From a plasmid: a stretch of DNA of 64,000 nt. Shown here in pieces: positions 1,932 through 51,687 of the stretch. The notes beneath the pieces are model-generated. The model worked only from the letters and a program-made list of their open reading frames with translations. It did not search any database and was not told the DNA's origin. The stretch lies in the sequence record NZ_CP033968.1; one strand, 5' to 3'. Position 1 is the first letter of the stretch, and each line of letters begins with the position of its first letter. Made by a program: the position numbers and the translations under genes.

Positions 1932-1982
1932 CGGATACCGCCGGCGGCCGCAAGGGGCGCCCTTAAAAGACCGCTTACGGAC

Positions 1983-2624: not shown

Positions 2625-3082
2625 AGCGTGGGCCACTCGATTTTCTCTTGGGGCCCAGTCTCGTCCTCCCAGGAGATCTTCACCTGGAACTTCCGTTCCG
2701 CGAGCCCTAGATGGGCAGTTGCAATCAGGTCCACCCCGCACTGTGGTTCCAGCCGCTCCAGCGGGAACGTGCTGCGCACCTGTGACTCGACCAGAATGCT
2801 ATTGCCGTCCACGAACTCGATGCGTACGTTCCTGGCAGCGGCCCGTCCCCGGTTGAAGACCTTGAAGCGCCTGTCGTTGGAACCGCGCATGGCAAACGCA
2901 GTGCTCACGTCAGCCTTTTTCTCTGCCGCTGCTTCCGCCTCCTCTCTGGCCAGCAGACGCTCGTTCAGCAACTTCTGGCTCTGATTGACACCCTTCTGCC
3001 GATGGTTGAAGAGCACCGACGCGCCCGTACCGACAACGGAAACGATCAGCGCCGCGGCTGCGATGAAGTCGCTCTCAGTCAT
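2621..3082 (-). CDS. hypothetical membrane-anchored protein (N-terminal TM helix, coiled-coil, C-terminal beta-rich domain)
   Basis: 153 aa ORF. Hydrophobic N-terminus AAALIVSVVGTGASVLF. Start overlaps stop of upstream gene by 4 nt (operon). Confidence 0.5.
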   Translation of the reverse strand: MTESDFIAAAALIVSVVGTGASVLFNHRQKGVNQSQKLLNERLLAREEAEAAAEKKADVSTAFAMRGSNDRRFKVFNRGRAAARNVRIEFVDGNSILVESQVRSTFPLERLEPQCGVDLIATAHLGLAERKFQVKISWEDETGPQEKIEWPTL

Positions 3083-6826: not shown

Positions 6827-7168
6827 ACGAACGCGATCGCCGGCCGGGCATTAGGAATACCATACAACTATTGCTACGTGTTATGTATCGCTATTGTGAG
6901 AAACGAGGAGCTAGTTGCAGTTCGCAAATGGCAGGAGAGCACACTGGGCACTTCTCCGAGCACTAGCCATTCGGTCAAACGTGATCATCGCGAGATTGGA
7001 TATCGGCTTGCCGAGGTTGCACTCAGCAGGACACCAAGAATGAACACCGGGAATTTCGAGAAAGAGGCGGGAGGTTTCGTGCCTCGCGTAGGGAAGCACT
7101 AGCAAGCTCGACGAGCTCAACCGCGCGCACTCTGGCGGCGGTCTTTCGCATGTATTGAGGAGGGCAGG

Positions 7169-8527: not shown

Positions 8528-8559
8528 TAAGAGACTGCCGTAATATCTCCGTAATGGTG

Positions 8560-38514: not shown

Positions 38515-38850
38515 TCAAACCTGGCCTGTAGCCGCCGTTCTCAGGTAGCCGGCGTGATACGGGGCGCAGCCCATAATCCAGCGGCCTTCTAGTTCGAGGT
38601 CGTAGTCCGAGAACGACGTTCCCGACGCATTGCATCTGGCCTCGTTCTCGATGACGGCATCGAGGCGGACAATCTCTGTCTCATTAAGCGGTCGAATGCC
38701 TGTCTGGCGGGAGCTGCTAGCCCAAGCCTTGTACTCGGGAGTACCGTGCTCGTCGAGCCAATCTCGATGCTTGAACATCTCCCTGTCCGTGGTGAAGCCG
38801 AGGGCGACCGCTTCGTCGCTGACGCCTGAAATTGCTGCTTTTCCTGTCAT
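38515..38850 (-). CDS. hypothetical protein
   Basis: SD GAAGGAGTACGAA ATG; 111 aa. Confidence 0.45.
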   Translation of the reverse strand: MTGKAAISGVSDEAVALGFTTDREMFKHRDWLDEHGTPEYKAWASSSRQTGIRPLNETEIVRLDAVIENEARCNASGTSFSDYDLELEGRWIMGCAPYHAGYLRTAATGQV

Positions 38851-38873
38851 TTCGTACTCCTTCGAGTTGAACC

Positions 38874-40061
38874 GTGCAAGCTGATATGCCGCACACGAAG
38901 GAAGAAGGGCGAGACCTGCTCCGGCAAAAAAAGCCCGCTCCGGATGAACCGGCAGCGGGCTGGGCGGGAGTCAACGGGTGTATTGTTAAAGCCGACCAAG
39001 TTCGACGCTGCCGGGCAGCGGCAAATCGGGGTGAGACCGTGATTCAGTTCCTTGCAGACCAGATAGACCAGCTCGACCTTGCTCTAGACCAGCTCGCGTT
39101 GCAGGATCGGAACTTTGACCGGTTCGCTATGATGCTGACGGACAATGTCGTCGAACTGACATTGCACCGGCATGCAGAAGACACTCGAGTACTTGAATCG
39201 GATCTGCGCCTTGGGGGCCAGACTCCAGGAATCGATCAGAAGATTGTGTCGGAAGCTTTGGGGGCGAGGTTCGACGGCAAGGTAAAGTTGGCGCGTACGA
39301 CCGGGCTGATTGATGCGGAATTGAGCGCGACGCTGCTTTATCTCCATGGTTTCCGGAATACTGCGTACCACCGCGGTGCCCGGCATGAGGGCGTTCTGCA
39401 TTCGGTTTCGCTCTTCTACGTGCGGTGCGCCTGCGAGATTCTTGCGCGGTACCAGCCCCTTGGGTGGTACTCAGCGAGCGGGGACAAGATCTCGCACCGC
39501 GCTGTGAAGTACCTTGGCTCCATGAAAGGAAAATTGCCAACCGAACCTTTCGGGCGCGCATGGGCCCAGATATCGGAAGTCGCACTGCATCTGGGGGACA
39601 GGCTCGTAGCTGATCTGCACTGCGACATGCAGAAGACTATAGAGACGTTCGCCGAAAGCCTGGGATTGCTTGCGCAGTACCCTGAGCCTGGTGGTACACC
39701 GCGCAGCACTGTGATCATTGAGAGTCAGGTGTGGCACGTTGCCTTTTCGTCCGTGGGGGAAGACTATGCTCGAGTCCACGGTGGACCGACGTCGCCGTCG
39801 GCTGACTACGTGCGCTGGATAGAAGCCAACTTCCCATGGATCGACCGCGTTGACCCGGTTCCGTCGTGGCGAAGGCGAGCCGCCACACTCGCGAAGGAAA
39901 AGAATCCGCATTCGGCCGTTAAGAAGTACTGCGACTTCATGCGGCAGTCTGAAATGTTGCGTGAAGCGATCGATGCGGCTGCTGCTCAGCTCAACGCCCA
40001 TCTGAACAACCTGGTGGATTCGTACCTCGAAGAACAGGCTCTTCAGCGAGGGAAGCCGTGA
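38874..40061 (+). CDS. hypothetical protein (start uncertain)
   Basis: 395-aa ORF; no recognisable domain. Confidence 0.45.
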   Translation: MQADMPHTKEEGRDLLRQKKPAPDEPAAGWAGVNGCIVKADQVRRCRAAANRGETVIQFLADQIDQLDLALDQLALQDRNFDRFAMMLTDNVVELTLHRHAEDTRVLESDLRLGGQTPGIDQKIVSEALGARFDGKVKLARTTGLIDAELSATLLYLHGFRNTAYHRGARHEGVLHSVSLFYVRCACEILARYQPLGWYSASGDKISHRAVKYLGSMKGKLPTEPFGRAWAQISEVALHLGDRLVADLHCDMQKTIETFAESLGLLAQYPEPGGTPRSTVIIESQVWHVAFSSVGEDYARVHGGPTSPSADYVRWIEANFPWIDRVDPVPSWRRRAATLAKEKNPHSAVKKYCDFMRQSEMLREAIDAAAAQLNAHLNNLVDSYLEEQALQRGKP

Positions 40062-40098
40062 AGGAAAAAAATGAAAACGCCCCTTCGGAAAGGGGCGT
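40062..40098 (-). terminator. Rho-independent terminator closing the minus-strand small-gene array
   Basis: On minus strand: CGCCCCTTTCCGAAGGGGCG followed by TTTTCATTTTTTT. Confidence 0.5.
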
Positions 40099-40110
40099 CA
40101 CAGCGGTTGA

Positions 40111-40284
40111 TTAAGCATCCTGAGCGGCGTCGCGCATCAGTGAAGTGGCCTCAGCGTACGAGAGCCCATTGTCACGATAGTAGAGCGCACCCTGATGGAT
40201 GGCGCCGTCGTGGCTGTAGCCTTCCTTGCGGTACTCGAGATACTTGTCGGTTGCCCGAGCGAGCTGTTCGAGGGTGAACTGCAT
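40111..40284 (-). CDS. unlisted small ORF, 57 aa (MQFTLEQLARATDKYLEYRKEGYSHDGAIHQGALYYRDNGLSYAEATSLMRDAAQDA)
   Basis: Hand-translated; SD GAGGCAGAA ATG; directly followed by the terminator; below the 60-aa ORF-track cutoff. Confidence 0.35.
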   Translation of the reverse strand: MQFTLEQLARATDKYLEYRKEGYSHDGAIHQGALYYRDNGLSYAEATSLMRDAAQDA

Positions 40285-40332
40285 TTCTGCCTCACTTGGT
40301 GGTGCGTTGCAAAGCGCCGCGAGAACGACGGA

Positions 40333-40605
40333 CTAGAGTTGATATGCGATTGCCTGACGCAGGGCAGAGGCGTCCATGTAGGCGCCATGCTTCGCGATGT
40401 AGCGGCCGATTGCTACGTCCAGCTTGACTACTTTCAGCTTTCGCATGCTGTTCAATGCTCTGAACGCTTCTTCGCGAGTGCATCCCGTGATCTCCTGTAC
40501 TGTTTCCACGAAGTTCTCTTCAGCGTTCGCAATGCGTTGGGCGACGGGTTTCGCTCCAGGGAGCCGTGCGTTCTGGTGCATACCTGCCTTGGCCTTAGCG
40601 GTCAT
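40333..40605 (-). CDS. hypothetical protein
   Basis: 90 aa; start overlaps stop of 40605..40823. Confidence 0.4.
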   Translation of the reverse strand: MTAKAKAGMHQNARLPGAKPVAQRIANAEENFVETVQEITGCTREEAFRALNSMRKLKVVKLDVAIGRYIAKHGAYMDASALRQAIAYQL

Positions 40606-40823
40606 CAGATGCCGCCTCCGTACCCAAGCTGGGACATGATCCAGTCGCAGACAAAGCGGCGCTTCACCTGATCAGCTTTCAGCTCCGAGTCCTCACCTGC
40701 TTCACGAATCACCACCGCTGCAATGTCACCGCGCGTGCGATCGTGGCCGACGGTAGGCAAAGAGCGAACAACTGCGCTGAAGACTCGCTTGCCCGCCGTT
40801 GCCTTGACTGCGTCAAAGTCCAT
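40605..40823 (-). CDS. hypothetical protein
   Basis: 72 aa. Confidence 0.4.
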   Translation of the reverse strand: MDFDAVKATAGKRVFSAVVRSLPTVGHDRTRGDIAAVVIREAGEDSELKADQVKRRFVCDWIMSQLGYGGGI

Positions 40824-40885
40824 TTCTTTCCTTTGTGTTTCGACCGCAACGGCGGCCGTCGCATATGCCTGGTTGTCGATAATCG

Positions 40886-41116
40886 TCAGATCACTTGCCC
40901 ATGAAGAGCTTGAACCTCGCGATAGTTGTTGGCCATGTCATGAAGCCAGCACACCTTGATGCGTAGATCGTCCGATGAGGGAGACACGTCCCACTCAACA
41001 AGGCTGTAGCAATGCCCGCCTTCATCGAACACTCGTGCTTCTGAACTTCCCATGGAGATGCGGTTGAACCCCTTGTTTCTAAGAAATTTCTGAACGCGCT
41101 TCCCGTTTGCGGTCAT
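40886..41116 (-). CDS. hypothetical protein
   Basis: SD AGGGAAAGAACG ATG; 76 aa; stable hairpin CGCCCGCCGAAGCGGGCGGG just upstream (41150-41169). Confidence 0.4.
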   Translation of the reverse strand: MTANGKRVQKFLRNKGFNRISMGSSEARVFDEGGHCYSLVEWDVSPSSDDLRIKVCWLHDMANNYREVQALHGQVI

Positions 41117-41175
41117 CGTTCTTTCCCTTGAATGTTGTGTTGTTCCATCGCCCGCCGAAGCGGGCGGGTCGGGTG

Positions 41176-41373
41176 CTAGATCTTGCGAACGGTACCGCTC
41201 GCGATGTTCCAGCCGTTAGGCGCGAAACCTTTGCGGTTTCCCCACTTGTCGCTTTCGATGAAGGAGCCGTCGTTCAGGTTGAACTGCTCGCCGCCATCCT
41301 GCAGCGGCTTTACGCTGCGAGAGTTGGCGCGAAGAAACGTGCTGGATTTCAAGATGAAGTCTTTGGCCTGCAT
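41176..41373 (-). CDS. small hypothetical protein
   Basis: SD GAAGGGAATCGAGAA ATG; 65 aa. Confidence 0.4.
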   Translation of the reverse strand: MQAKDFILKSSTFLRANSRSVKPLQDGGEQFNLNDGSFIESDKWGNRKGFAPNGWNIASGTVRKI

Positions 41374-41414
41374 TTCTCGATTCCCTTCGCCCGGGTTTGC
41401 GGGCAGATTTGTGG

Positions 41415-41954
41415 TTAGCGTTCCGCGGATTCGCCGTCGATCTCGAAGCAATATGGGTTGCTCTCGTCCGTGGAGACTTCCGCGAGGATCGGCTCGCCGT
41501 TAGGCCATGAACCAAGGTTGGCGGAGTTGCCTTGAATACGGTCGAGCAACTTGATTGCTTCCGCCTTGCTGGTGGCCTTGACGCGCACCGCGCAGGACAG
41601 CCGTACATCAAACGCGTACTCGTGAATCTCTGTCGTAGTACCGATGGTCACCGGGTCCGTCGACATGTCGGTCAGTGCGGTCGCAAAGTAGTGACCGTAT
41701 GCCAGCGGATCGGGGTCACTTGGCATCGAAACCAGGAATAGCAGTTCATCGCATTTGGCCAATCCGTTGACCTCCATGCCGACGGCTGCAATGGAGACCC
41801 GTTGGCCGCGGTACTTCTCCAGGTTGGGCAGCTTCTGAATTGCCTCGTCAGAGAAACGAGCCGATTTGAGACTGGCAGCAAATGCAGCTGCCTTGCTCGG
41901 GTCCTTGAAAATGCTGTCTGCTCCGCAGACGAGTTTGTTGCGGGCTTCTGCCAT
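41415..41954 (-). CDS. hypothetical protein
   Basis: SD CAAGAGGAGAGATCC ATG (inside duplicated cassette A); 179 aa. Confidence 0.5.
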   Translation of the reverse strand: MAEARNKLVCGADSIFKDPSKAAAFAASLKSARFSDEAIQKLPNLEKYRGQRVSIAAVGMEVNGLAKCDELLFLVSMPSDPDPLAYGHYFATALTDMSTDPVTIGTTTEIHEYAFDVRLSCAVRVKATSKAEAIKLLDRIQGNSANLGSWPNGEPILAEVSTDESNPYCFEIDGESAER

Positions 41955-42060
41955 GGATCTCTCCTCTTGAAGGTTGGACTTGCATGAGGCAATGAGACAC
42001 AGGCAAGACTATGTGCCAGCGGAAAGGAAAACGCCCCTCACTGGCTGGCCAGGAGGGGCG
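41951..42060 (-). repeat. Duplicated terminator-promoter-5'UTR cassette, copy A
   Basis: CATGGATCTCTCCTCTTGAAGGTT..CTTGCA..AGGCAATGAGACACAGGC..GACT ... CCCCTCACTGGCTGGCCAGGAGGGG is nearly identical to 42729-42840. Confidence 0.6.
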
Positions 42061-42082
42061 GGGGAGTTGGGAGGTCAGAGCA

Positions 42083-42253
42083 TCAAGCCGTGTTGGAGGG
42101 CTGGTCGACGCAGAGCTCCTCGAAAGCCGGGCAGCTTTCAACTTCATCTACGTCTTCGGTTGGCCAGTTCTTCGAGCACTGGCTCAACTCTCCAGGCCTG
42201 TACGTGCAGTGCGCGCAGGTCGCGCACAGATCATCATCGGAAATTGAGCGCAT
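42083..42253 (-). CDS. unlisted small Cys-rich ORF, 56 aa (MRSISDDDLCATCAHCTYRPGELSQCSKNWPTEDVDEVESCPAFEELCVDQPSNTA)
   Basis: Hand-translated; excellent SD AAGGAGACGAGAAAA ATG; ends just before the terminator hairpin of cassette A. Confidence 0.4.
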   Translation of the reverse strand: MRSISDDDLCATCAHCTYRPGELSQCSKNWPTEDVDEVESCPAFEELCVDQPSNTA

Positions 42254-42285
42254 TTTTCTCGTCTCCTTGCGTGGTGTTCCGTGGT

Positions 42286-42510
42286 TCAGTGGCCGCCGAG
42301 TAGCGCGGGTTGTGGTTCGGCAGTGAGGCTAGCCTTGTATTGACGGGCAAGCTTGAGGCTGTACGACGCGTTCGCCCGTGTTCTGTCCGCCAGCCAGGTT
42401 CCGGCCAGTTGGCCGCGCGCCCGGTGGATGCGAGCCCAGCGGGCGAGATATCGAGCGTCACGTACGAGCCACTCAATAGCCTCGCGGATTTCAGCCTGAG
42501 TCATGGTCAT
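42286..42510 (-). CDS. hypothetical protein
   Basis: 74 aa; start overlaps stop of 42507..42731. Confidence 0.4.
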   Translation of the reverse strand: MTMTQAEIREAIEWLVRDARYLARWARIHRARGQLAGTWLADRTRANASYSLKLARQYKASLTAEPQPALLGGH

Positions 42511-42731
42511 CCCCTTGCCTGGTGACCCGGCTCAGACTTGCCCAGGTTGATGAGCGCCGCGCGAAGCTCGTTGTGGTCCATGCGGTTGATAGCTACTTGT
42601 GCCTCGATCTTCCGCTCCAGCGGCAAGAGCGCGTGGATGTTCGCCTTCAAAACCTTGCGCGCCGTTTCGCAGAATTTGATGGCGTCCAGGCCTGCTTGGT
42701 TCGGACTGTGTTGGCTGGGGATTTGTGGCAT
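42507..42731 (-). CDS. hypothetical protein
   Basis: SD CAAGAGGAGAGATCC ATG (inside cassette B); 74 aa. Confidence 0.4.
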   Translation of the reverse strand: MPQIPSQHSPNQAGLDAIKFCETARKVLKANIHALLPLERKIEAQVAINRMDHNELRAALINLGKSEPGHQARG

Positions 42732-42840
42732 GGATCTCTCCTCTTGAAGGTTTATCTTGCAAGAGGCAATGAGACACAGGCGGGACTAAGCGTAGACGGG
42801 AAGGGAAGAAAAACCCCTCACTGGCTGGCCAGGAGGGGGT
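42729..42840 (-). repeat. Duplicated terminator-promoter-5'UTR cassette, copy B
   Basis: See copy A. The inverted repeat CCCCTC-ACTGGCTGGCCAG-GAGGGG followed (minus strand) by a T-rich run forms an intrinsic terminator. Confidence 0.6.
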
Positions 42841-42845
42841 GGAGG

Positions 42846-43235
42846 CTAGTTGGCAGGTACGATCCGGAGCGTGAAGGTATCCGGAAGCTTTCGCCCGAGG
42901 ATGACGGAGGCGCACTGTCGGAATCGCTCCGACCAGGCTCCGGTTGTTCGGCGCCCGCTAGGTGCGCAGATCTTCCAGGCAGTTTCAATCTGGTCGTGCT
43001 GATCCTGAGTGACTTCGATGATCGAAGCGATTTCCTTCTCAATCCACGCGTCCGCAACTTCCACAGCGCGGCAGCGCGATGATTCGGTTCCCGCCGCGAC
43101 CCAGTCGCCGCCGATTTCGCCTAGGACTTCAAACGTGCCAAGGATTCTGTTGGACGGTACGGCATGGATTACGCGAACGACGATTTCGCCCTCGACGCGC
43201 GAATACACTTCAGTTCGCTCTACTTGGTTCGGCAT
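42846..43235 (-). CDS. hypothetical protein
   Basis: 129 aa; ends 6 nt before cassette B. Confidence 0.45.
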   Translation of the reverse strand: MPNQVERTEVYSRVEGEIVVRVIHAVPSNRILGTFEVLGEIGGDWVAAGTESSRCRAVEVADAWIEKEIASIIEVTQDQHDQIETAWKICAPSGRRTTGAWSERFRQCASVILGRKLPDTFTLRIVPAN

Positions 43236-43350
43236 CAGTTACTCCCTACGGGTTGGTTTGCAGAGGAGTAATGCGGCGCATGTGGGAATAACCGCGGTGC
43301 CGTAGTCGCGGGCAGGGGCACGCTGATGTGCAGGTGCCCGCAGGGCGGAC

Positions 43351-43620
43351 CTATCCATTGCTTCCACTGAACGGATTGGGTGCAACTCCCGGGGGTGCCA
43401 CGGCAACTTGATCTGGCAACGGCCCGGCCTCGAGCGAAGCGACAATCAGGTCGAGGTTTGCTTTCAATGCCTTTGCCATGCTGAGGCCCGCTTTGTCCCT
43501 TGTCAGGTCTAAGCTTCCATAGATGGATACGCGATCAAGGCGGTTCTCGATGGTCATCTCGCCGATGGCTACGACCTCGGACTCGTTTGCAAACGGGCTG
43601 AGCGTTTGTGAGGTGGACAT
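43351..43620 (-). CDS. small hypothetical protein
   Basis: SD AAAGGATCTGAG ATG; 89 aa; start overlaps stop of 43622..44221. Confidence 0.4.
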   Translation of the reverse strand: MSTSQTLSPFANESEVVAIGEMTIENRLDRVSIYGSLDLTRDKAGLSMAKALKANLDLIVASLEAGPLPDQVAVAPPGVAPNPFSGSNG

Positions 43621-43621
43621 C

Positions 43622-44221
43622 TCAGATCCTTTGTTCGGCCTTGCCGAGCTTTGGGGCGATCGCCTTTGCCTTGGCGACAACGTTGGTCCCGGGAATGAAG
43701 TCGTGCAGGAACTGGCCGTTTGCACTCATCAGGGGGATGAGAAGCAGCAGGCCAGCCACTGCAGCGAGGAAAGCCGGCGAAGCGATGAAGAGGAGGCAAG
43801 TCAGGGTAACCACCTTCATCGCACTTCGCAGCAGAATTTCCCCAAAGCGCAGCTTTCGGTCGGCCGCGCTGCGCGTGGCCAGTCGGAACAGCCACTTGCC
43901 GGGAGTTCCTTCCATCCGCAGCTTGGCAAACATTGATTCGTAGGCCCACCAGATGGCGGGGAGGCCGGCCATCACGTATGGCGCGATACCTCGCGCGATC
44001 GCTTCGTACCAGGCAAAAGTCAGGTGGTCAGCAGGCACACCCGCAAAGATCACCTGCAGCTGCTCGGCTGACGGCATATCCATCATCATCGCCGCTATCC
44101 ACGCTGCACCGATGGTTGCTGCGGCCACTACCGCTGCGAGGATACATGCATCTACGGCATTTGCGCCCAGCCGCCTACTGATGAGCAGGACCCTTGGCAG
44201 GACGTTTCGTTTCGTGATCAT
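43622..44221 (-). CDS. multi-pass membrane protein (RDD-family-like)
   Basis: 199 aa, 4-5 hydrophobic helices; start overlaps the nuclease gene stop. Confidence 0.4.
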   Translation of the reverse strand: MITKRNVLPRVLLISRRLGANAVDACILAAVVAAATIGAAWIAAMMMDMPSAEQLQVIFAGVPADHLTFAWYEAIARGIAPYVMAGLPAIWWAYESMFAKLRMEGTPGKWLFRLATRSAADRKLRFGEILLRSAMKVVTLTCLLFIASPAFLAAVAGLLLLIPLMSANGQFLHDFIPGTNVVAKAKAIAPKLGKAEQRI

Positions 44222-45075
44222 TGGGAATTTCCTATCGCGTGAGTAGTTGTGCTGCCCGGGAAAAGGTCTTTCAGGACCCGCTCGGCAGATTTTTCGATCC
44301 CCCGATCCGATCTGCCGCGGAGTTCGGGGCGGGGGAGGGGGAGCTTCGATGCCTTGGCTTCTGCCGGCAAACTTGGGAAGAAGACCAAGCCGGCCATCGC
44401 TTCAAGCTCAGGGAGTGAGACGACCTCGTAGGCTGTCCCGGGTTCGTTGTTGACAACGTAGGCCGCTCCCTTCTGTGCGGCTGGGTCGAAGACGACCTTG
44501 AAAATTCGGTCCGGGACCAGGACGCGCCCATTGAGCTGTTTGACCTTGGCGCCGGTGAAGAGTGGGCCGGTGATGACATAGAGCGAGCCGCGACGCTCGA
44601 CAAGGTTGCGGACAGCCATCTCGATTCCGGCAAAAAGGTGGCGGTTGTTGTCCGGGTCCTGAGCGACGATGTTGCTGAGTGTGAAGCTCTCATACCGGGC
44701 CTCGGGAGTGCTCATGTCGCCACTTGGGGCGAGGTGACCTCGGTCTAGCCCCGACCGTGCAAAGTCCGCTAGTTCGGCGCGGTCCTTGGATGGGAGGCGC
44801 GAATCAGGGTGAAACGCGTCCGCCCGCTGCAGCGATCGGGCGGCGCGAATACGCGAAGGCGTGAGATGTTCCGCCGACCAGATAGCCGCACGGCTTAGGG
44901 GCGAATGCATGACGGCGAACTCGGTAAAGCAGAGCTCCGTAGCGCCCTGCGCCAGGCGGGCGTTTGCGACGATAGGAGCCGTGCCCTGGTAGTAGCTTCG
45001 CGCGCAGGCTGGGTCTTGGGCGTACCCCGGGATTGCCAGCACGCACAGCAGGGCGGCGAGCAGGTGCGATTTCAT
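44218..45075 (-). CDS. Secreted non-specific DNA/RNA endonuclease (Serratia nuclease/EndoG family, DRGH motif)
   Basis: Signal peptide MKSHLLAALLCVLAIPGYAQ; catalytic SGLDRGHLAPSGD; start overlaps VRR-NUC stop (ATGA). Confidence 0.75.
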   Translation of the reverse strand: MKSHLLAALLCVLAIPGYAQDPACARSYYQGTAPIVANARLAQGATELCFTEFAVMHSPLSRAAIWSAEHLTPSRIRAARSLQRADAFHPDSRLPSKDRAELADFARSGLDRGHLAPSGDMSTPEARYESFTLSNIVAQDPDNNRHLFAGIEMAVRNLVERRGSLYVITGPLFTGAKVKQLNGRVLVPDRIFKVVFDPAAQKGAAYVVNNEPGTAYEVVSLPELEAMAGLVFFPSLPAEAKASKLPLPRPELRGRSDRGIEKSAERVLKDLFPGSTTTHAIGNSQ

Positions 45076-45587
45076 CGTAATCTGGTCCTCTTTGGCGGCT
45101 CGTACACAGTGCAAGGAGAGATCCCCTGGCCAATGCGTGCAGGAATGAAGTTGGCAAGTTGAGATGCGTCATCGACCCAGCCGGCCAATCCTCCGTTCTG
45201 CGCCACGTTCTGAAGGAATGCCCATTGATCGTCGGTGGGCTCCTTTCCCGGGCGCTTCACTTCCACAGCGAAGAATCGACCATCTTTCAGTTGTCCGACG
45301 ATGTCTGAGACGCCAGGGATAGAGAACCGGACAAAGCGCTTCTGATCCCCTTCGCCGTACACAGCCACGCCTGTGTTCATGCGCATGACCCAAGCAACGC
45401 TGGGATGCTGCTCGAGCAGCTCCATGCATGCCAGCAGTACTTTGGTTTCGCGCGGCGACGGCGGATCGGTCGGCTTCGCTCTCGCCGCCCGCTTCGTGGG
45501 CTTCTCCTGGGGAACCACCGGCGTGCTGGTCTTCTGAGCACGACCGAGCAGCGCCTCGTACTCCTTCTCGCTGAGCCGTTTTCCCAT
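45072..45587 (-). CDS. VRR-NUC domain PD-(D/E)XK nuclease
   Basis: GVSDIVGQLKDGRFFAVEVKRPGKEPTDDQWAFL fits the VRR-NUC signature (D...E.K...Q). Confidence 0.65.
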   Translation of the reverse strand: MGKRLSEKEYEALLGRAQKTSTPVVPQEKPTKRAARAKPTDPPSPRETKVLLACMELLEQHPSVAWVMRMNTGVAVYGEGDQKRFVRFSIPGVSDIVGQLKDGRFFAVEVKRPGKEPTDDQWAFLQNVAQNGGLAGWVDDASQLANFIPARIGQGISPCTVYEPPKRTRLR

Positions 45588-45589
45588 TG

Positions 45590-46180
45590 CTAGCCGAACA
45601 TGTCGCCAAGTTTTTCCAGTGCTTCGAGCGCTACGGGGTCGATGCTCTGGGGGCTCGCCGGCGCCGGATGCGCGGCTGGGACGGTTCCAGGGTTTGCGGC
45701 AACGGCAATGGCAGGGGGCACGATCGTGGCAGGCGTTTCCGCTTCCTCCATACCCTGCGCGAGAAGTGGTTGGATGGGCTCGACCACTGTTTCGCGCAAG
45801 GGTGGTGGTTGCTCCGCCGGCGCCTCTGCTACCGGAGACGGGGTAGCAGGACGGGCAGCCGGCCGGGCTGAAATTGCGCGGGGCTTCAGCACCCTGGCAG
45901 AGCGTCCCTTGGCGCCTCGGCGCACCTGCTTGTCGTGCGGTGCGGATTCGATGAGACCCCCGGGACCAGCCAGTGCCTCCTCAATGGCGTCATCCAATGT
46001 TCCTGCATCCCGGTGCTTGATGAACCACTGATACAGGACGCCCCGGATGAGAGGGGTTTCGGTCCGGTATGGCATTTCTGCGAGGAACTCCAGAGCCCCG
46101 GGGCAGGTTGCCTCCGCGATCACCAGGTTGATGCGCCGCTCCGGTTCGTCTGGGTCGAACACCCGGATGAGCTTAGGCAT
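45590..46180 (-). CDS. hypothetical protein directly downstream of the ParM-like gene (possible ParR-like adaptor; N-terminal RINLVI beta-strand-helix, Pro/Ala-rich tail)
   Basis: 196 aa; start overlaps the ParM-like stop by 8 nt; position equivalent to parR in parMR operons. Confidence 0.4.
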   Translation of the reverse strand: MPKLIRVFDPDEPERRINLVIAEATCPGALEFLAEMPYRTETPLIRGVLYQWFIKHRDAGTLDDAIEEALAGPGGLIESAPHDKQVRRGAKGRSARVLKPRAISARPAARPATPSPVAEAPAEQPPPLRETVVEPIQPLLAQGMEEAETPATIVPPAIAVAANPGTVPAAHPAPASPQSIDPVALEALEKLGDMFG

Positions 46181-47201
46181 CTACGGTTTCCTGTTGGCTC
46201 TGCCGCTTCATCGCTTGGCGCAGCGCCACGCCCATGCCGTAACGGCCGAAGCCATTGGCTACTGACATGCGGGGGTTGTCAAGGAGAATGCAGTGCGACC
46301 ACTTCTTCTTGATTTCCTCATAGAGCAGCGGGGCGCCACCGCCGGCCAGGATCACGCCGTGCAACTTCCGCACGTCCATGGACAGCAAGGAGTCGGCCTT
46401 GGCGTTGATCTTCTGGGCAACGTGCGAGACCGCCTTTGCAACTTCTTCGGAGATGTCGATTTCTTGACCAAACTGCAAAATCGATTTGGTCCGGATCGCG
46501 GTTTCGCACTCGATGAGATTCGAGTGAATCCCGCGGCCATCGAGAATGCGTACCAGATGCTCCGCGGCGAAATTCAGCCCTTCGCATGTGCCGGCGCCGC
46601 GTTCAACGTACTGCCCTTCGAGCATCAGCAGAAAGTCGGTCGTGAAGTGGCCGACTTCGATGACAGCCCAACTCTTCGTCCGCCCGGATGCGTCAGTGAT
46701 ATGACTCCGGATCGGGAGCCCCTTTTCGTCGAGGTAGAAGTCGCAATACGCGCCCATCGGTTGGGGCAGGACCCGCATCTCGGCCTTAACGACACGTTCC
46801 GTGACCTCTTTGAGCCGAGCTTGCTGGGAAGAGAACAAGTTCGCTGGGGTACCGATCACCAGAAGCGGCTTGTCGAGGCCCGGAACCCCCATGGCTTCAA
46901 AGCGCTTCATGGTCGAGGCGACCAACACCTGGTACTCGGGGGTGTTGATCCAGTCGTTCGACAGGCCGGCATTGGCGCCGGGGCTGCCCTGCAACCGAGC
47001 AGTGTCGCCCGTGAAGAACTGCTTTCCCTCGATTTCGACGGTTTCGATGGCGGCTCGTCGAGCGGTCGTCTCGTCGGAGATCCCGATGGCGGGCGAGACG
47101 ATGGAGGGGAAGGTGAGGGGGTAGGACTCGCCTTGGGCAAAGGCGACGGCCTTGACGGCGCTACGGCCCACGTCGAGGCCAATGATGGTTTGGGTCAGCA
47201 T
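46173..47201 (-). CDS. Actin-like ATPase of the ParM/StbA family (type II segregation or phage actin)
   Basis: N-terminal phosphate-1 motif IIGLDVGRSAVKAV, later actin-fold motifs (VIEVGHFTTD, ILAGGGAPL); start at internal ATG 47201. Confidence 0.65.
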   Translation of the reverse strand: MLTQTIIGLDVGRSAVKAVAFAQGESYPLTFPSIVSPAIGISDETTARRAAIETVEIEGKQFFTGDTARLQGSPGANAGLSNDWINTPEYQVLVASTMKRFEAMGVPGLDKPLLVIGTPANLFSSQQARLKEVTERVVKAEMRVLPQPMGAYCDFYLDEKGLPIRSHITDASGRTKSWAVIEVGHFTTDFLLMLEGQYVERGAGTCEGLNFAAEHLVRILDGRGIHSNLIECETAIRTKSILQFGQEIDISEEVAKAVSHVAQKINAKADSLLSMDVRKLHGVILAGGGAPLLYEEIKKKWSHCILLDNPRMSVANGFGRYGMGVALRQAMKRQSQQETVDA

Positions 47202-47436
47202 GAAATTCTCACAGTGCAGAGTCGAAAAGGCCCCGCAACCGGGGCCGGCCACCGATGCGCAATCCGCTGTGCGCAATGTGTACTGCTCATTGTTCACTGC
47301 AGATACCGCACCTGTTACGCGTCCGCATTTTAGAATACATAACACGTATTGACAAGACGACTGTAGCGAACGGAGAATTGCCCCCCCGGGGTTGTTTACG
47401 CAATGTGATAAGCAACCCCCAAAGGACGCTTAATAC

Positions 47437-47961
47437 ATGGTGCGTAACCAACCCCCCGAGATCGACGATTTTGCAGTTGCCCTGACCGCGGCCCGAAAGG
47501 CGGTCGAGGAGACGGAAAACCTTATCCGAATCATTGATTCAACCCTCGAACGTATTGATTCCCTGATGTACGTGATGCAGCCGTTTCAGTCCGGCCGAAT
47601 TGGCATAAAGCGGGTGTTCAGTAACGGGAGATTGCGCTGGCAAGTGCGAATCTTTCGGCAGCTCCGTAGCCGCAAGTGGGTCTCCTCGTTTGCGAGCCAC
47701 AAGGGGTTGCGGCGCCGCGTGAAGCGTTCCCGGGAGTGGGAGGCAAACTACAAGTTCCTGCAGTTGCTCTGCGATCGAGTCACCCTGCTGTTTGAGTTGC
47801 GGTCGCAAGCGGTGGACCGGCTCTGGCGTTTCTCGCATGGATCGACCCGTTCCACCAGGGCCCGAGAGGCTGCGATAAGCGACACGGTCGCCCTAGTGGA
47901 CGGGCTGCTGGAGCGGATCGAGGCACGGTTCGAAGGCGATATGGAACTTGAGGACGAATAG
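47437..47961 (+). CDS. hypothetical basic protein (Arg-rich, possible DNA-binding)
   Basis: SD AAAGGACGCTTAATAC ATG; 174 aa; terminator-like hairpin at ~47975-48015. Confidence 0.45.
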   Translation: MVRNQPPEIDDFAVALTAARKAVEETENLIRIIDSTLERIDSLMYVMQPFQSGRIGIKRVFSNGRLRWQVRIFRQLRSRKWVSSFASHKGLRRRVKRSREWEANYKFLQLLCDRVTLLFELRSQAVDRLWRFSHGSTRSTRAREAAISDTVALVDGLLERIEARFEGDMELEDE

Positions 47962-48019
47962 GCTAAGCGGGATCAATGCCGACCAAGGCCCTGGTGCAGA
48001 GACTGTGCCGGGGCTTTTT

Positions 48020-49500
48020 CTTTATGGGTAGCGAGTGTCTCGGCCGGGCCGGATATTGGGCGAAGATTGGATTGAGGCGGACGTAGAGGAGATAGCTGCC
48101 AGGCGGAGGTCCTGTGGGGAGTCGGGATTTCTGCCACGCGGGGTATTGGGCGGAGGGAGTCCTGGGCTCTGTGCGATGGGAGACGGGACTGGCTCTGGCG
48201 GGATCTCGGGTTTGGCCTGTTCTGCGGCTTTGCGTAGTGCGCTGTTCTGCGGGCGGGTGGATGGGCTGGTTGTCTCACTCTGCCGACCGGTGGTCGTTCT
48301 CTCGCCTGCGCGGGTGTCCGCCTTGTTCCCTTGTTCTCTCTCTGTCCGATTGGGCGGCCGGTGGTCCTGTGCTTGTTGCGGTGGGGCGGGGAGGTAGCCG
48401 GCGATGGCTTGGTGCGGAGTGAGCTTGGGCGCGGAGTGAGAACTTCGGTTGGCGGTGGCTTGGGTTTGGTGTCCCTCGGCGGCCCGTGGTCCGCCGGAGG
48501 CTTTGGTGTCGCCGGCGCATCAGCGCGGGCCCCGTGAGGGGCTATGGTTCTGCCGACGGGATAACTATTTGTCCTGCCGGGGCTCGTTCTGGTGGTGTGC
48601 GGGCTGGGCTTGTGCGCCCTCCTGCGTCGGGGTTGTTGCGCCGCCGTGAGCATAACCATTTGTCCTCTTCCTTCCTTGTGTCGCCGCGGGATCTCGCTCC
48701 CTGTTCTTCCTGAGAGCCGGGTGCGCTGCTGCTGTCCTGCTGCCGGGGCGGGATTGGGCTGCTCCTTCTTGCCCGGTCATCTCTCACCGGAACTGTGGAT
48801 GGGATCGAATGGATCTAATGGATGAAGGGGAGGGGCGGCCGGTGTCGTTCTGCCGATGGCGTGTCGGGGAGCCGGGTGGATCTGTCGGCGGGGCGGAGGT
48901 CTTGGGCTGGGGTGGTTGTTCTGCTGGCGTGGGAATGGTGCTGGTGGTGGATGGTTGTGGCGCTGGGTGGCTGGTTCTGTCGGCGGGGGATCGGGTGGAG
49001 CGGCGTTGTGCTGGCGGGAGACTGATGGTGTTGGTTCTGAGAGTGGCGGCGGTGCGGTGGTGGTGTCAGGCGGAGTGAGAAGTTTCGCTGGCGATGGTGC
49101 GAGAGAAGTCGGGTATGAGCTCGGATCGAGTGGGGCTGGTGTATCGGCAGGCGATGGCGTGGGTGAAGTCGGGTATGGGCGGGGCGGGGGCGGGAGATTG
49201 GCTGGCGATGGCGTGTTGCGGTGTGGTTGTTGGGCAGGCGGTTGTTTTGGCCGTGTGGGGGAGGGCTGGCGTACCTGGTGCCGTAGCCGCCGGCGCCGTG
49301 GGGGCGACGCCCGGCGAAGCCGGGCTGGGGTGTTGCCCCGGGGTAAATGTTTGGCCGGAGGGCTTCTCTTGGGCGCTCCCCTGTGGGTAAATGGTTGCCC
49401 CTGCTACCGGGTTCTATGACCGGCGTCGGTGAGTAAATGCTTGGCCGTTGCTGTTTCGCTGGTCTGGGTGCGGTGTATGTTGGTGTTGCTCTACCCATGC
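48020..49500 (+). repeat. ~1.45 kb strongly A-depleted, G+T-rich, repeat-rich apparently non-coding block
   Basis: Sampled 60-nt window at 48241-48300: A 5%, T 32%, G 40%, C 23%. Short motifs recur (GGATATTGGGCG x2, GTTCTGCCGAyGG x3, ATAACyATTTGTCCT x2, ~35-bp GGCGATGGCGTGGGTGAAGTCGGGTATG x2). The many overlapping low-complexity ORFs on both strands are explained by the absence of stop-codon-forming bases. Confidence 0.5.
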
Positions 49501-49578
49501 GTAACACGTATGCATAATTTGCTTGATTGATCTAAGTACTGTGCGTATGATGGGTATAAATGGTTGGCCACATATGAA
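49343..49578 (+). repeat. Four copies of GTAAATGnTTGGCC-like motif flanking the TAACACGTATGCAT site upstream of gene 49589
   Basis: Copies at ~49343, 49387, 49433, 49564. Confidence 0.45.
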
Positions 49579-49588
49579 GGGGTATGAG

Positions 49589-49858
49589 ATGCGTACGAAG
49601 GTGAAGGTTGGTCTGATGATTGGAGGTGTCGTGCTGGTAGCAGCGGCGATCGTGCTGGCGCCCGTGCTGCGCGACCTGCCTTGGCTGAAGTGGACCCTGT
49701 ACGTGTGCGCTGCACTGATGCTGTCCCCGCTGTTCATGGGCGGTCTCGTGGACGTGCCCGCCACCACCCCGGAAGATCCGACCTTCGAAAAGAATCGCAT
49801 CGGCGATGCAAGGCAGGACGTCTGGGGGTTCAACGGCCAAGACAGCAACAACGACTAA
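49589..49858 (+). CDS. small membrane protein (2 TM)
   Basis: SD AAGGGGTATGAG ATG; 89 aa. Confidence 0.4.
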   Translation: MRTKVKVGLMIGGVVLVAAAIVLAPVLRDLPWLKWTLYVCAALMLSPLFMGGLVDVPATTPEDPTFEKNRIGDARQDVWGFNGQDSNND

Positions 49859-49893
49859 GCGCGGCGAAACTGGAAAGGATGAAAGGGGTCGAG

Positions 49894-51687
49894 ATGAGCA
49901 AGGCTACGCACGAACAACTTACCGCGATCAACAGCGCCGTCCGTCGCCTGGTGGTCCAGGCCTGCCCGGGTGCCGGCAAGACGTTCACCCTGAGGGAGTA
50001 CGCCCTGGTGCGTCCCTCGGAGCGCATCCTGTACCTCACCTACACGAAGTCTCTCCAGACTGAAGCCGAGGGCAAGTTCCCCCAGAACGTCGAATGCCGC
50101 ACCACTCACTCCCTTGCGTGGTCGTTCGGCCGTCGCTTCAAGGACGCCGGTAAGCTGGGCGACCTGCGCCCGAGCGACTTCGCCCGCGCCTTCGGCATCG
50201 AGATCGGCTTTGCCAGTATCCTGGTGACGACTGTCACGAGCTTTCTGTTCTCCGCGGATACCGACTTCGAGCCGCACCATGTGCCGGACACGATCGCCGA
50301 GGCAGATGTCGCTGAGACCCTGAAGTGGGGCCGGCTCGCTTGGGAGGCCATGCAGGATCTCGGCCGCAAGAACGTTCCCATGCCCCATGACGGCTATCTC
50401 AAGCTGTTCCAGCTTTCGAAGCCGGACCTGTCGCGTCGCTACGATCGCATCCTGTTCGACGAAGGCCAGGACGCCAACCCGGTCACGACCTCGATCGTTC
50501 TTGCCCAGAATTGCCCTGTGGTGATCGTCGGCGACCGGTATCAGGCGATCTTTGCCTTCCGGGGTGCCGTCAATGCCATGGACATGATCCAACCGGATGA
50601 AACGGTCTACCTCACCCAGAGCCATCGCTTCGGCCCTGGCATTGCCCGGCTGGCCACGATGCTCCTCTCCGCGTTCCGCGGCGAAGAGCGACCTGTGTAC
50701 AGTGCCTTCCCGGATCGGCCGACTGGCTACACGGTCGACGTTTCCAAGCCGTACGCGGTCATCGGCCGCACGAACGCCAAGCTGTTCGACAAGGCTGTCG
50801 CCATGCTGGGCAACAAGCGTCTGCACTTTGTCGGTGGGCTCAGTAATTACCCATTTGACAAGTTGGTGGACGTTTGGAACCTGATGAGCGGCCAGCCGGC
50901 CGCCGTCAAGGACCAGTTGCTCAAGACCTTTGGTTCGCTGGAGAAGCTCGAGGAGTACGCGACGGGCGTTGACGACAAGGAGATTCTCTCCCTGATCGGT
51001 GTGGTGAAGGAGTACCGCAGCGCGATCCCGTCGCTGGTCGAGAGGATCAAGGCGGAAGCAGTGGAACAAGCAGAGCACGCTGACGTTCTGCTCTCGACGG
51101 CCCATCGTGCGAAGGGTCTCGAATTCAGCCAGGTACTGCTGCTCGACGACTTTGAAGACTTCGTCACGGCCAATGGCGAGCTGCTGACTCTGGATACGCC
51201 CGAACTGGTCCAGGAACTGCACCTGCTGTTCGTGGCACTCACCCGAGCCGAGGACGTTATCGAGCTCAACGCCCAGATGCAGGACATCATCGCGATCCTA
51301 GGGGATCGCGTGCCTGAAGCTCAGCCAACCCCGGGCGAGAGGAGCACCGAACAAGTGGGGGAGCAGCTTGGCCAGATTCCGGGTTTTGATTACGTGCCGG
51401 TTGTGTATACGTGTGATGTAGCGGAAAATGTCACACGTGAACAAAAGGCACCGGTGGTCGCGCTGGCGCAAGTGCCGGTTGGTGCTGGCACTGACATTGA
51501 GAAATCGGTGGAGCTGGCGATCCTCCGGCAAGGCCTCCTCCACGTTCCGCGGCTGGCGCAAGAGGTTGGCGTGAGCCGCGAGGTGATGGCGGATGTCATC
51601 GTCGAGATGATCCGGAAGGGCCTGCTGGCCGAGTCGCTCTTCCTGGGTAGCCCGGAAGTAGTCAGCCGGCTGCGGGTGGCTGCGTGA
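49894..51687 (+). CDS. UvrD/REP superfamily I DNA helicase
   Basis: Walker A CPGAGKTFT, DEGQD, motif VI STAHRAKGLEFSQVLL; start at ATG 49894 (SD AAAGGGGTCGAG). Confidence 0.8.
   Translation: MSKATHEQLTAINSAVRRLVVQACPGAGKTFTLREYALVRPSERILYLTYTKSLQTEAEGKFPQNVECRTTHSLAWSFGRRFKDAGKLGDLRPSDFARAFGIEIGFASILVTTVTSFLFSADTDFEPHHVPDTIAEADVAETLKWGRLAWEAMQDLGRKNVPMPHDGYLKLFQLSKPDLSRRYDRILFDEGQDANPVTTSIVLAQNCPVVIVGDRYQAIFAFRGAVNAMDMIQPDETVYLTQSHRFGPGIARLATMLLSAFRGEERPVYSAFPDRPTGYTVDVSKPYAVIGRTNAKLFDKAVAMLGNKRLHFVGGLSNYPFDKLVDVWNLMSGQPAAVKDQLLKTFGSLEKLEEYATGVDDKEILSLIGVVKEYRSAIPSLVERIKAEAVEQAEHADVLLSTAHRAKGLEFSQVLLLDDFEDFVTANGELLTLDTPELVQELHLLFVALTRAEDVIELNAQMQDIIAILGDRVPEAQPTPGERSTEQVGEQLGQIPGFDYVPVVYTCDVAENVTREQKAPVVALAQVPVGAGTDIEKSVELAILRQGLLHVPRLAQEVGVSREVMADVIVEMIRKGLLAESLFLGSPEVVSRLRVAA

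Follow-up and report, generated by a model that had tools for sequence, protein, structure and literature searches.

Among the described systems with which the present locus can be compared, the sopC site of the F plasmid consists of twelve 43-bp direct repeats, and both sopC and parS of P1 lie directly downstream of the gene for the centromere-binding protein. In parC of plasmid R1, two sets of five 11-bp iterons flank the core of the parMR promoter, and the whole site, of about 160 bp, is located immediately upstream of parM. In the deo, gal and lac systems operators hundreds of base pairs apart are bridged by one repressor, and the immunoglobulin class-switch regions are G-rich, repeat-built and prone to form R-loops. 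Here we describe a gene-free block at positions 48020-49500 of a 64,000-nucleotide stretch of a Cupriavidus megaplasmid (sequence record NZ_CP033968.1). The whole stretch is referred to below as the window; it is numbered from its first letter, and the strand given in it is called plus. The comparisons below firmly establish the block, which lies between a gene for a small basic protein and an operon for a UvrD-like helicase, as an intergenic element that is conserved, codes for no protein and is built of repeats; its operators are shared and its strand composition is conserved. It may represent a repeat-array cis element of plasmids whose unusual trait is this conserved composition, and no description of it was found in Rfam, in the annotations of the carrier plasmids or in the searchable literature. 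With regard to its function, we tentatively regard the block as a cis-acting array of protein-binding sites, comparable to a centromere or an operator field.

Strand composition and boundaries

The plus strand of the block contains 9.3% A, 22.3% C, 43.1% G and 25.3% T, compared with 20.2% A in the window as a whole. When A content was scanned in 1-kb segments, the eight lowest values (minimum 8.1%) all fell inside the block, against a window-wide mean of 20.2% and a standard deviation of 2.3%, which places the block about 5 standard deviations below the mean. Skew reaches extremes of -0.77 for AT and +0.58 for GC in the block and is normal again at both edges and in the flanks, and total GC is normal for the replicon. 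A sequence-only reading of the same DNA had described an extreme asymmetry with about 5% A at normal overall GC. The asymmetry proved to be strong and sharply bounded, AT and GC skew being reproduced on recount and confined to the block, and the normal GC was borne out as well; the figure of 5% was too low, as no 200-nucleotide segment falls that far.

The repeat units alone do not account for the skew, A making up 10.3% of the sequence inside the units of the window and 8.8% outside them, with three other lineages alike in this respect. Polarisation of recent substitutions with an outgroup gave 44 gains of A versus 19 losses, an excess that parsimony under skewed composition inflates; a genuine excess would mean that the low A content is kept up against mutation. 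A regional mutation bias as the cause of the skew is unlikely, because the flanks are normal and the polarised changes, subject to the caveat about parsimony, are toward more A.

Conservation among large conjugative plasmids

Relatives were collected by searching with the block and with the flanking basic protein, and are designated below by locus numbers where needed. At least 13 lineages of megaplasmids with a type F mating-pair formation system (MPF_F) have a gene-free block of 1.5-2.35 kb with 10-16% A. Conservation in related plasmids had been put forward earlier as a check, and the same position and bias were found in Cupriavidus, Ralstonia, Burkholderia, Caballeronia, Methylibium and Pseudomonas. 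The carriers comprise several Cupriavidus lineages, Ralstonia pseudosolanacearum, Burkholderia vietnamiensis (pBVIE01), Burkholderia sp. YI23 and SFA1, Caballeronia grimmiae, Burkholderia sp. M701 (pM7012), Methylibium petroleiphilum (RPME01) and many Pseudomonas megaplasmids including pSTY. They share the MPF_F transfer type and differ in replicon cluster (332, 219 and 398) and in relaxase type, which is MOBP in Cupriavidus and Methylibium and MOBF in Burkholderia and Pseudomonas.

The gene order in these plasmids runs from a leftward operon, encoding a ParM-like protein, a protein of 190-215 amino acids (aa), usually a VRR-NUC protein and/or a non-specific endonuclease, and an RDD protein, through the basic-protein gene and the gap of 1.5-2.35 kb to the genes for a small hydrophobic protein and a UvrD-like helicase. 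In all cases the A-poor strand is the strand of the helicase operon, with 10-16% A overall and locally 4-12%, compared with 17-22% in the flanks. The low-A bias persists even where the flanking basic protein is only 25% identical. In a multiple alignment only the two ends of the block are well conserved, and the architecture is constant.

At closer range, plasmid p1 of Cupriavidus metallidurans BS1 matches the region at 99.9% identity, and three other Cupriavidus megaplasmids match it at 97.8-98.5%. These five near-identical plasmids have fewer variable sites in the block than in the flanking genes, and the interval 47800-48499 contains no variable column.

Coding status

The block is non-coding. 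The sequence-only reading had noted long open reading frames (ORFs) in all six frames, which the ORF listing confirms, and had explained them as compositional artefacts; GC content by codon phase, ORF length relative to shuffled sequences, indels and translated comparisons all agree with that explanation. The spread of GC between codon phases is 0.01-0.08 over 47950-48850 and 0.13-0.15 over 48700-49300, compared with 0.3-0.47 in the neighbouring genes. The longest open frame in the window's block, of 267 codons, was equalled in 38 of 300 composition-matched shuffles; of five lineages, three have longest frames of a length that shuffling also yields, and two exceed their shuffles only marginally. 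In each lineage every frame is interrupted by 4-26 stops, and none is open across the block. When the block was aligned with that of L026, a metagenomic relative whose basic protein is 82% identical, identity ranged from 75 to 95% and 14 indels were counted, 12 of a single base pair and one each of 2 and 6 bp, compared with none in the two flanking genes. Six-frame blastp comparisons between lineages scored equally in all frames, the best-matching frames shifting from lineage to lineage.

The proteins that might nevertheless be proposed are low-complexity products of the minus-strand ORFs 47973-48659 and 48815-49507 (rich in Pro, His, Arg and Thr) or of the plus-strand ORF 48856-49419 (rich in Gly, Trp and Val). 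Apart from the presence of long ORFs as such, this proposal can draw on the older annotations and automatic callers that name ORFs here, on the weak GC-phase signal at 48700-49300, which has the sign expected of a minus-strand ORF, and on the consideration that a T-poor coding strand would give a protein without hydrophobic residues. The called ORFs, however, occupy differing strands and positions from lineage to lineage, none of the long ORFs matches Pfam, and the Prokaryotic Genome Annotation Pipeline (PGAP) leaves the block unannotated in all RefSeq copies. Local spectral analysis also detects a 3-nucleotide periodicity, with z-scores of 2.3 in the window (48025-49330), 3.9 in pM7012 and 3.3-6.8 in Pseudomonas (the signal occurs in the equivalent blocks of L008, L009, L010, L016, L017 and L019), for which the parM gene (7.6) and the helicase gene (12) serve as benchmarks. 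This periodicity is tentatively ascribed to trinucleotide-like micro-repeats such as CTTCTT, GGTGGT and GCTGCT, because all frame-based coding tests fail. In view of the single-base indels that are frequent between close relatives, the shuffle-like ORF lengths and the equality of the six translated frames, the coding reading is already nearly refuted.

Anatomy of the block and its operators

From left to right, the basic-protein gene and its terminator are followed by left repeats, a core with palindromic operators and a G-rich right array; the right edge consists of three operators, a promoter with a TAACACGTA box, a fourth operator, and then the genes for the small membrane protein and the UvrD-like helicase. 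The individual features are as follows.

47985-48017, plus strand: intrinsic terminator of the basic-protein gene, a 15-pair stem followed by a T run, forming the left edge of the block (terminator scan)
48025-48475, plus strand: left repeat field, with four 27-nucleotide units in the same orientation at 48041, 48131, 48246 and 48445 (position-matrix scan)
48477-48496, no strand: inverted repeat CGGCGG-N8-CCGCCG, invariant in the alignment of six betaproteobacterial lineages
48559-48574, no strand: central operator copy 1, GGATAACTATTTGTCC, a palindromic operator with the central 4 bp inverted
48650-48665, no strand: central operator copy 2, GCATAACCATTTGTCC (repeat analysis)
48666-48826, plus strand: pyrimidine-rich (CT) tracts and then an ATGGAT/GGATC cluster, reaching the start of the right array
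48830-49320, plus strand: right repeat field, G-rich, with GC skew up to +0.58 and six 27-nucleotide units at 48920, 48976, 49007, 49084, 49144 and 49231
48923, 49010, 49087, 49201 and 49265, all on the plus strand: five GCTGGCG heptamers in the right field
49341-49446, plus strand: three tandem operators, GGGTAAATGNTTGSCC, at 49341, 49385 and 49431, 44 and 46 bp apart
49502-49518, plus strand: helicase-operon promoter, with the TAACACGTA box at 49502-49510 and then a -10-like CATAAT at 49513-49518
49554-49569, plus strand: fourth operator, downstream of the promoter and ahead of the small gene's ribosome-binding site

The operator is a 16-bp palindrome, GCAYAA-ATGG-TTRTGC (window form GGGTAAATGGTTGSCC), whose central four bases are inverted in the copies of the core. 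Every lineage has 3+1 copies at the promoter and one to three in the core, 0.8-0.9 kb apart, and the three tandem copies recur in the same arrangement, about 45 bp apart, in all lineages. The core, of about 300 bp, has a mean column identity of 65% among the six betaproteobacterial lineages and contains the invariant inverted repeat, the one to three operator copies, the pyrimidine tracts and the ATGGAT/GGATC cluster; the CT-rich part extends to about 550 nucleotides in Pseudomonas. The region of central operator copy 1 is the best-conserved part of the block (92-95% identical to L026), and ATAACCA occurs in seven of eight lineages, with an expectation of about zero. At the left edge, a hairpin and T run equivalent to the terminator align in all five lineages compared.

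Among the short repeats that the sequence-only reading had listed, the two copies each of GGrTATTGGGCG and ATAACyATTTGTCCT were found as claimed. Three copies of GTTCTGCCGAyGG were not: GTTCTGCCGAYGG has an exact count of two in the block, at 48547 and 48847. The supposed tandem pair of about 35 bp exists as two 34-nucleotide copies that are 82% alike (49087-49120 and 49147-49180), whose starts are 60 bp apart, so that they are not head to tail.

Of the 17 loci searched, 14 have the TAACACGTA box in exact form; no exact copy is present in L018, the L013 sequence stops short of the promoter, and Methylibium has a variant. The wider promoter string GTAACACGTAnnnATAAT occurs in most lineages and is not universal. 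As a separate observation, eight exact copies of TAACACGTA are present in the window (6875, 13655, 17566, 30900, 36682, 47340, 49502 and 55516), one of them beside repA and one between parM and the basic-protein gene, and six of the eight stand directly before a -10-like hexamer, for instance TAACACGTAtgtATAAT. Sites with one mismatch lie at 11811, 22082, 51408 and 58204, which brings the matches at this tolerance to 12 versus 3.3 expected in shuffles. TAACACGTA looks like a plasmid-wide promoter or operator family of a candidate regulator or sigma factor.

Repeat units and their lineage specificity

The 27-nucleotide unit has the consensus TnnGCnGGCGGGGGATtGGGcGGAGTG, and all units point one way. 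A position matrix for the unit, trained on pBVIE01 and Cupriavidus sp. TMH.W2, detected the following numbers of sites.

Window: plus strand 10, minus strand 1
L026: plus strand 9, minus strand 2
L022: plus strand 6, minus strand 1
TMH.W2 (L014): plus strand 14, minus strand 0
Ralstonia (L025): plus strand 11, minus strand 0
pBVIE01 (L006): plus strand 15, minus strand 0

Shuffled sequences gave means of 0.4-0.7 sites (0.5 for the window) and a maximum of 3, and strong matrix sites in the window are confined to the block. Unit spacings cluster at 31-33, 54-65, 86-94 and 123 bp, approximately multiples of three helical turns. The right fields of pBVIE01, TMH.W2 and Ralstonia keep a spacing of 31-33 bp and its multiples. 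The left field is degenerate in the window, while pBVIE01 has six units there at 59-62 bp from one another, Pseudomonas has 55-bp units and Methylibium 66-bp units. At the level of 12-mers the repetition in the window exceeds composition-matched chance only marginally, with 8 copies versus a shuffle mean of 5.8 and a maximum of 7.

The unit is common to Cupriavidus, Ralstonia and B. vietnamiensis, and Pseudomonas and Methylibium have other units. The matrix found no site in pM7012 and at most one in any Pseudomonas lineage; pM7012 instead carries ten copies of ATGGGATTAGGC in one orientation, a motif one base off the GGGATTGGGC core of the other group. A motif that differs by lineage on a fixed architecture is the pattern expected of sites that co-evolve with a binding protein.

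Side observations on the G runs within the right field concern their length, which differs among close relatives (window 49175-49195): the window has one more G at 49186 than its four nearest relatives, L026 has 11 G (2198-2217) and L014 about 10 (~6920-6932). These could be slippage-prone tracts or homopolymer sequencing errors.

Neighbouring genes

Four genes adjoin the block or stand close to it.

46317-47345, minus strand: ParM-like actin-type ATPase gene (Pfam ALP_N and MreB-like_C; phrog_691 'partition protein', E 1e-28; annotated by PGAP in near-identical plasmids, with coordinates taken from its gene call)
47437-47961, plus strand: basic-protein gene, an ORF of 174 aa, directly upstream of the block in every lineage
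49589-49858, plus strand: gene for a hydrophobic protein of 89 aa, probably a membrane protein, at the head of the rightward operon
49878-51687, plus strand: UvrD-like helicase gene (phrog_1967, E 8e-74)

The ParM-like gene, 0.7 kb from the block in every lineage, heads the leftward operon, in which it is followed by the genes for a 196-aa protein, a VRR-NUC protein, a non-specific endonuclease and an RDD protein. No other repeat array was seen adjoining it. Its product has 'PRTRC system protein D' as the best NCBIfam match, at 68 bits versus a cut-off of 215; it is therefore not a member of that family, a little-studied cassette of mobile elements, although a distant kinship is possible.

The basic-protein gene had been described as divergent and next to the block. 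It does diverge from the ParM-like gene to its left, and it lies on the same strand as the helicase operon; relative to the block it is not divergent but runs toward it and ends in the terminator at 47985-48017. Syntenic homologues with 25-100% identity were found in 26 plasmid records and 9 genome loci, and no match was obtained in Pfam, NCBIfam or PHROG. An AlphaFold model (predicted local distance difference test score 83) has a long helical hairpin flanking a three-stranded sheet, with a short helix inserted. Fold searches with this model returned no significant match; PC4-like and Pur-alpha-like single-strand binders appeared at E 0.36-0.9, hits that can be taken as a lead only. Side observations on the gap between the ParM-like and basic-protein genes (47327-47378) are two face-to-face overlapping promoter-like sequences, TTGACA-18-GAGAAT on the plus strand and TTGTCA-17-TAAAAT on the minus strand, both kept in pBVIE01; the leader of the basic-protein gene also contains a hairpin with a 7-bp stem, GGGGTTG...CAACCCC.

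The family of the UvrD-like helicase occurs in IncC-type plasmids and large phages, and its members are present in more than 1,500 plasmid records, many of them from Klebsiella, Salmonella and Escherichia. In the one Salmonella genomic island examined (L027), the helicase gene is directly upstream of traF-traH-traG, a gene arrangement that hints at a role tied to F-type conjugation. No equivalent block carrying the E. coli Chi was seen in this island.

Close relatives and pMOL30

In pMOL30 of strain CH34 (L002), homology begins only at 49405 and extends rightwards, covering two operators, the promoter and the helicase operon. To the left of the position equivalent to 49405 there are ordinary genes with no skew, and neither the block nor the basic-protein gene is present at the site. 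Comparison over window ~38850-49405 places the upstream neighbour genes of pMOL30 about 10 kb further left in p1 of BS1, which suggests that pMOL30 lost about 10.5 kb by deletion. As pMOL30 is maintained without the block, the module appears dispensable for maintenance in CH34.

As a side observation, in L004 (Cupriavidus sp. EM10 p352-2, 695-3062) the genes for ParM, the 196-aa protein and the basic protein are each shortened or split, and the block has a 1-bp deletion at the equivalent of window 48530. Since these are probably indel errors of the assembly, they should not count as evidence.

A binding-site array and its difficulties

The direct repeats in one orientation beside a partition-type NTPase gene, together with the lineage specificity of the repeat sequence, support the reading of the block as an array of protein-binding sites. 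The conserved module to which the block belongs consists of the ParM-like operon and, divergent from it, the basic-protein gene, the block and the operon of the small protein and the UvrD-like helicase. In the arrangement that we propose, the two lineage-specific, same-orientation repeat fields that flank the operator-bearing core would together form the assembly site of a large nucleoprotein complex. A plasmid-encoded protein would coat the repeat fields, candidates being the upstream basic coiled-coil protein and the 196-aa protein co-transcribed with ParM, and a second, dimeric operator-binding protein would connect the core with the promoter across 0.8-0.9 kb. Such a structure would most likely serve the neighbouring ParM-type system as a handle resembling a centromere, with coupling to the regulation of the helicase operon. 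Protein binding, looping and a role in partition are what we infer from this layout.

Several points weigh against this interpretation. No binding protein was identified, and no DNA-binding fold can be recognised in the basic protein. The known type II centromeres are situated upstream of parM, contain its promoter and measure ~0.1-0.5 kb, whereas the present array covers ~1.3 kb and lies beyond a second gene, 0.7 kb from parM. The plasmids already carry ParA/ParB (the left end of the window holds parA/parB as well as repA and an IS66 element), the repeats are degenerate in the window itself, and pMOL30 is maintained with neither the block nor the basic-protein gene at the site. Finally, A depletion is as strong between the repeats as inside them, which the array model leaves unexplained, and duplex binding by a protein would not account for a strand-specific composition in the DNA separating its sites. 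Because the array model fails to explain the avoidance of A between sites, rivals in which a single strand is read or transcribed are kept under consideration.

The most general of these is rather unlikely in our estimation: the block would be a composition-coded element, whose function rests on one strand being nearly free of A over more than 1 kb and not on any particular sequence. Read as a single strand, it could be a landing pad for a recombinase, a single-strand-binding protein or the basic protein, and the strand would be exposed by unwinding by the UvrD-like helicase, by resection or by conjugative entry. The persistence of the depletion at 25% identity of the flanking protein, its equal strength between and within repeats, and the substitution counts (44 A gained, 19 lost, a ratio inflated by parsimony) favour this possibility.

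Chi-like heptamers and single-stranded DNA

RecA binds DNA in triplets and prefers GT-rich DNA. In a narrower proposal, which we consider unlikely, the G/T-rich, A-poor strand would act as a strand-specific element of single-stranded DNA once unwound, resected or transferred, for example as a landing zone for RecA or a single-stranded-DNA-binding protein, with Chi-like heptamers switching RecBCD from degradation to RecA loading, so that the plasmid would be protected or recombined after breaks. A composition conserved beyond any motif fits the reading of one strand, as do the local 3-nucleotide periodicity without a reading frame and the neighbouring DNA-processing enzymes (UvrD-like helicase, VRR-NUC protein and endonuclease). 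The plus orientation also agrees with rightward replication from the repA region at ~6-9 kb, an agreement that chance would give half the time. On the other hand, the left half in Pseudomonas is C/T-rich and not G/T-rich.

Motif counts bear on this proposal directly. In an unbiased count of heptamers over eight lineages, the operator ranked first and was followed by CGGTGGT (20 versus 2.8 expected), CTGGCGG (26 versus 4.7) and GCTGGCG (29 versus 5.8); the opposite strand was nearly devoid of these, the reverse complement of GCTGGCG being seen once. Over 12 lineages the plus strand has 48 copies of GCTGGCG, compared with 14.2 in context-preserving shuffles (3.4-fold), and the minus strand has one; the five copies in the block of the window are all on the plus strand. 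In 10 of the 14 lineages examined the heptamer, which is among the most enriched of those shared, shows both enrichment and confinement to one strand. The Chi of the P. syringae RecBCD enzyme was determined biochemically as GCTGGCGC, of which GCTGGCG is the 7-nucleotide core, and GCTGGCG followed by T or G is partly recognised in vitro (PMC5959072). However, no plus-strand copy of the heptamer is present in the Pseudomonas lineages L009, L015 and L017 or in Methylibium (L028). The eighth base is mostly G, T or A and not C, and the full octamer GCTGGCGC is rare. The heptamer position varies within the arrays (GCTGGCG, GCGGGCG, GTCGACG, CCATGCG), because of which a degenerate protein site fits better than an exact Chi. 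In addition, the Chi used for comparison is that of Pseudomonas, and those of Cupriavidus, Burkholderia and Methylibium may differ from it.

The E. coli/Haemophilus-type Chi was rejected as a candidate: the GNTGGTGG family, which includes the E. coli octamer GCTGGTGG, is not enriched across relatives (19 versus 16.3 in shuffles), and GCTGGTGG itself occurs once in the block of the window. The cluster of Chi-like octamers suggested by the sequence-only reading therefore fails for the octamer that it named, and it survives as a weak candidate in the form of the related heptamer GCTGGCG, enriched 3.4-fold on the plus strand only and absent from four lineages. FtsK-orienting polar sequences (GGGNAGGG, 11 observed versus 8.9 expected) and Z-DNA (purine-pyrimidine alternation, at or under the shuffle level) were also rejected, as were (GGN)3 runs of the Pur-alpha type, unenriched in the betaproteobacterial lineages and modestly enriched in Pseudomonas.

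Transcription and RNA structure

A long transcript is a further rival reading, which we judge distinctly unlikely. Rightward transcription, by read-through of the terminator or from an unrecognised promoter, would produce a G/U-rich, A-poor non-coding RNA, or a stable RNA-DNA hybrid with the C-rich template as an R-loop; the hybrid would control the helicase operon or serve to prime DNA synthesis. With its G clusters, the G-rich non-template strand resembles R-loop-prone DNA, the predicted folds are very stable (-242 kcal/mol for 501 nucleotides), the block lies between a gene and an operon on one strand, and its composition is conserved where its sequence is not. Yet the block is preceded by a strong terminator and contains neither a promoter-like site nor a TAACACGTA box. 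No Rfam match was obtained at E <= 1 on either strand of 46000-51000. The fold z-scores of three segments are only -2.0, -0.35 and -1.7, and in an alifold prediction for the conserved core the covariation term is -1.32 kcal/mol and the best stems are invariant. The pairs of the inverted repeat, being invariant, are silent on covariation either way. Hence the highly biased non-coding RNA that the sequence-only reading had listed among its candidates gains no positive evidence from Rfam, the fold z-scores (-0.35 to -2.0) or covariation (-1.3 kcal/mol).

The same holds for its suggestion of a G-quadruplex-prone region, which was rejected on motif counts that match shuffles: the window has two G3+N1-7 x4 motifs versus a shuffle mean of 2.1, and seven of 12 lineages have none. 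A sponge of GGA motifs for CsrA/Rsm was also rejected. GGA is enriched in seven Cupriavidus, Ralstonia and Burkholderia lineages including pM7012 (z 2.5-4.0), with z-scores of -1.8 to 0 in Pseudomonas and -3.1 in Methylibium, and the sponge is not general because of this lack of enrichment in the latter two.

Origin functions

The sequence-only reading had also suggested an origin of transfer (oriT) or a secondary origin. Set out fully, the block would be an iteron-type secondary vegetative origin (oriV), a region of single-strand initiation or an oriT, all of which we hold to be very improbable. One iteron-like trait is present, namely 10-15 units in the same orientation, 31-33 or about 60 bp apart in the best-preserved arrays, and direct repeats at helical-turn spacing do resemble iterons; the helicase gene is adjacent, and the composition is like that of regions that spend time single-stranded. 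Nevertheless, DnaA boxes are represented only by scattered one-mismatch hits that overlap the operator, none of them consistent. No AT-rich unwinding element was found in the betaproteobacterial blocks, where the most AT-rich 30-mer is the promoter itself, and no neighbouring gene matches a Rep-like family, so that an adjacent initiator is lacking. The window has its own repA with a 1.9-kb gap beside it, 40 kb from the block. The occurrence of the block on both MOBP and MOBF plasmids and in replicon clusters 332, 219 and 398 argues in the same direction, as does the maintenance of pMOL30. For oriT in particular, no relaxase gene is annotated in the 64-kb window, and an RP4-like TCCTG/CC string at 48571 is not conserved.

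The 1.9-kb gap is a second gene-free interval, at window ~7191-9120 (NZ_CP037902.1 267527-269456), beside the replication-initiator gene. It has no skew of the block type, containing no segment of extreme A content, and is presumably the vegetative origin.

Significance and comparison with known systems

The module is found on large conjugative plasmids in two proteobacterial classes, and the sources of some records are metal-contaminated sites (a gold-copper mine and the sedimentation pond of a zinc factory), soil, sewage and clinical Pseudomonas isolates. Annotation pipelines leave its 1.5-2.3 kb blank or fill it with spurious ORFs, and the present results are grounds to drop the Pro/His-rich and Gly/Trp-rich calls. 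For experimenters the conserved non-coding block is a defined target. Should it be the centromere or control region of a ParM-type system, it would exceed every known site of this kind in size and be the most unusual of them; should the composition itself be under selection, it would point to an undescribed strand-specific mechanism in plasmid biology and to a new kind of plasmid cis element.

Of the systems mentioned at the outset, the immunoglobulin class-switch regions are comparable by analogy only: the block is likewise of kilobase scale, with degenerate repeats of 30-60 bp and G clusters on one strand, but its G-quadruplex motifs are unenriched and the left halves in Pseudomonas are C/T-rich. 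With the Pseudomonas Chi, 5'-GCTGGCGC-3', the block shares the enrichment of the GCTGGCG core on one strand and a GT-rich composition; unlike in Chi hotspots, the full octamer is rare, and the heptamer is missing in four lineages and variable between units. We know of no dedicated 1.5-kb Chi island on plasmids.

The likeness to deo, gal and lac lies in the 16-bp palindrome, of which every lineage has 3+1 copies at the promoter and a further 1-3 copies 0.8-0.9 kb upstream of it. In contrast to those systems, the intervening DNA is itself a conserved repeat field and the regulator is only putative. The block is similar to R1 parC in having a conserved core between two repeat fields, a ParM-family gene nearby and a repeat spacing in multiples of the helical turn. 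It differs in that it is 0.7 kb from parM beyond another gene, has no detectable promoter in its core, and shares its core operators with a different operon, that of the helicase. Compared with sopC and parS, the NTPase of the present system is actin-like (ParM type) and not ParA, the candidate binder has no ParB or ribbon-helix-helix signature, and the field is about three times longer, is split by the operator core and is skewed even between repeats. As in sopC and parS, however, the one-way direct repeats start right after the stop codon and terminator of a small basic-protein gene, a partition-type NTPase gene adjoins the site, and the repeat sequence varies by lineage on a fixed architecture.

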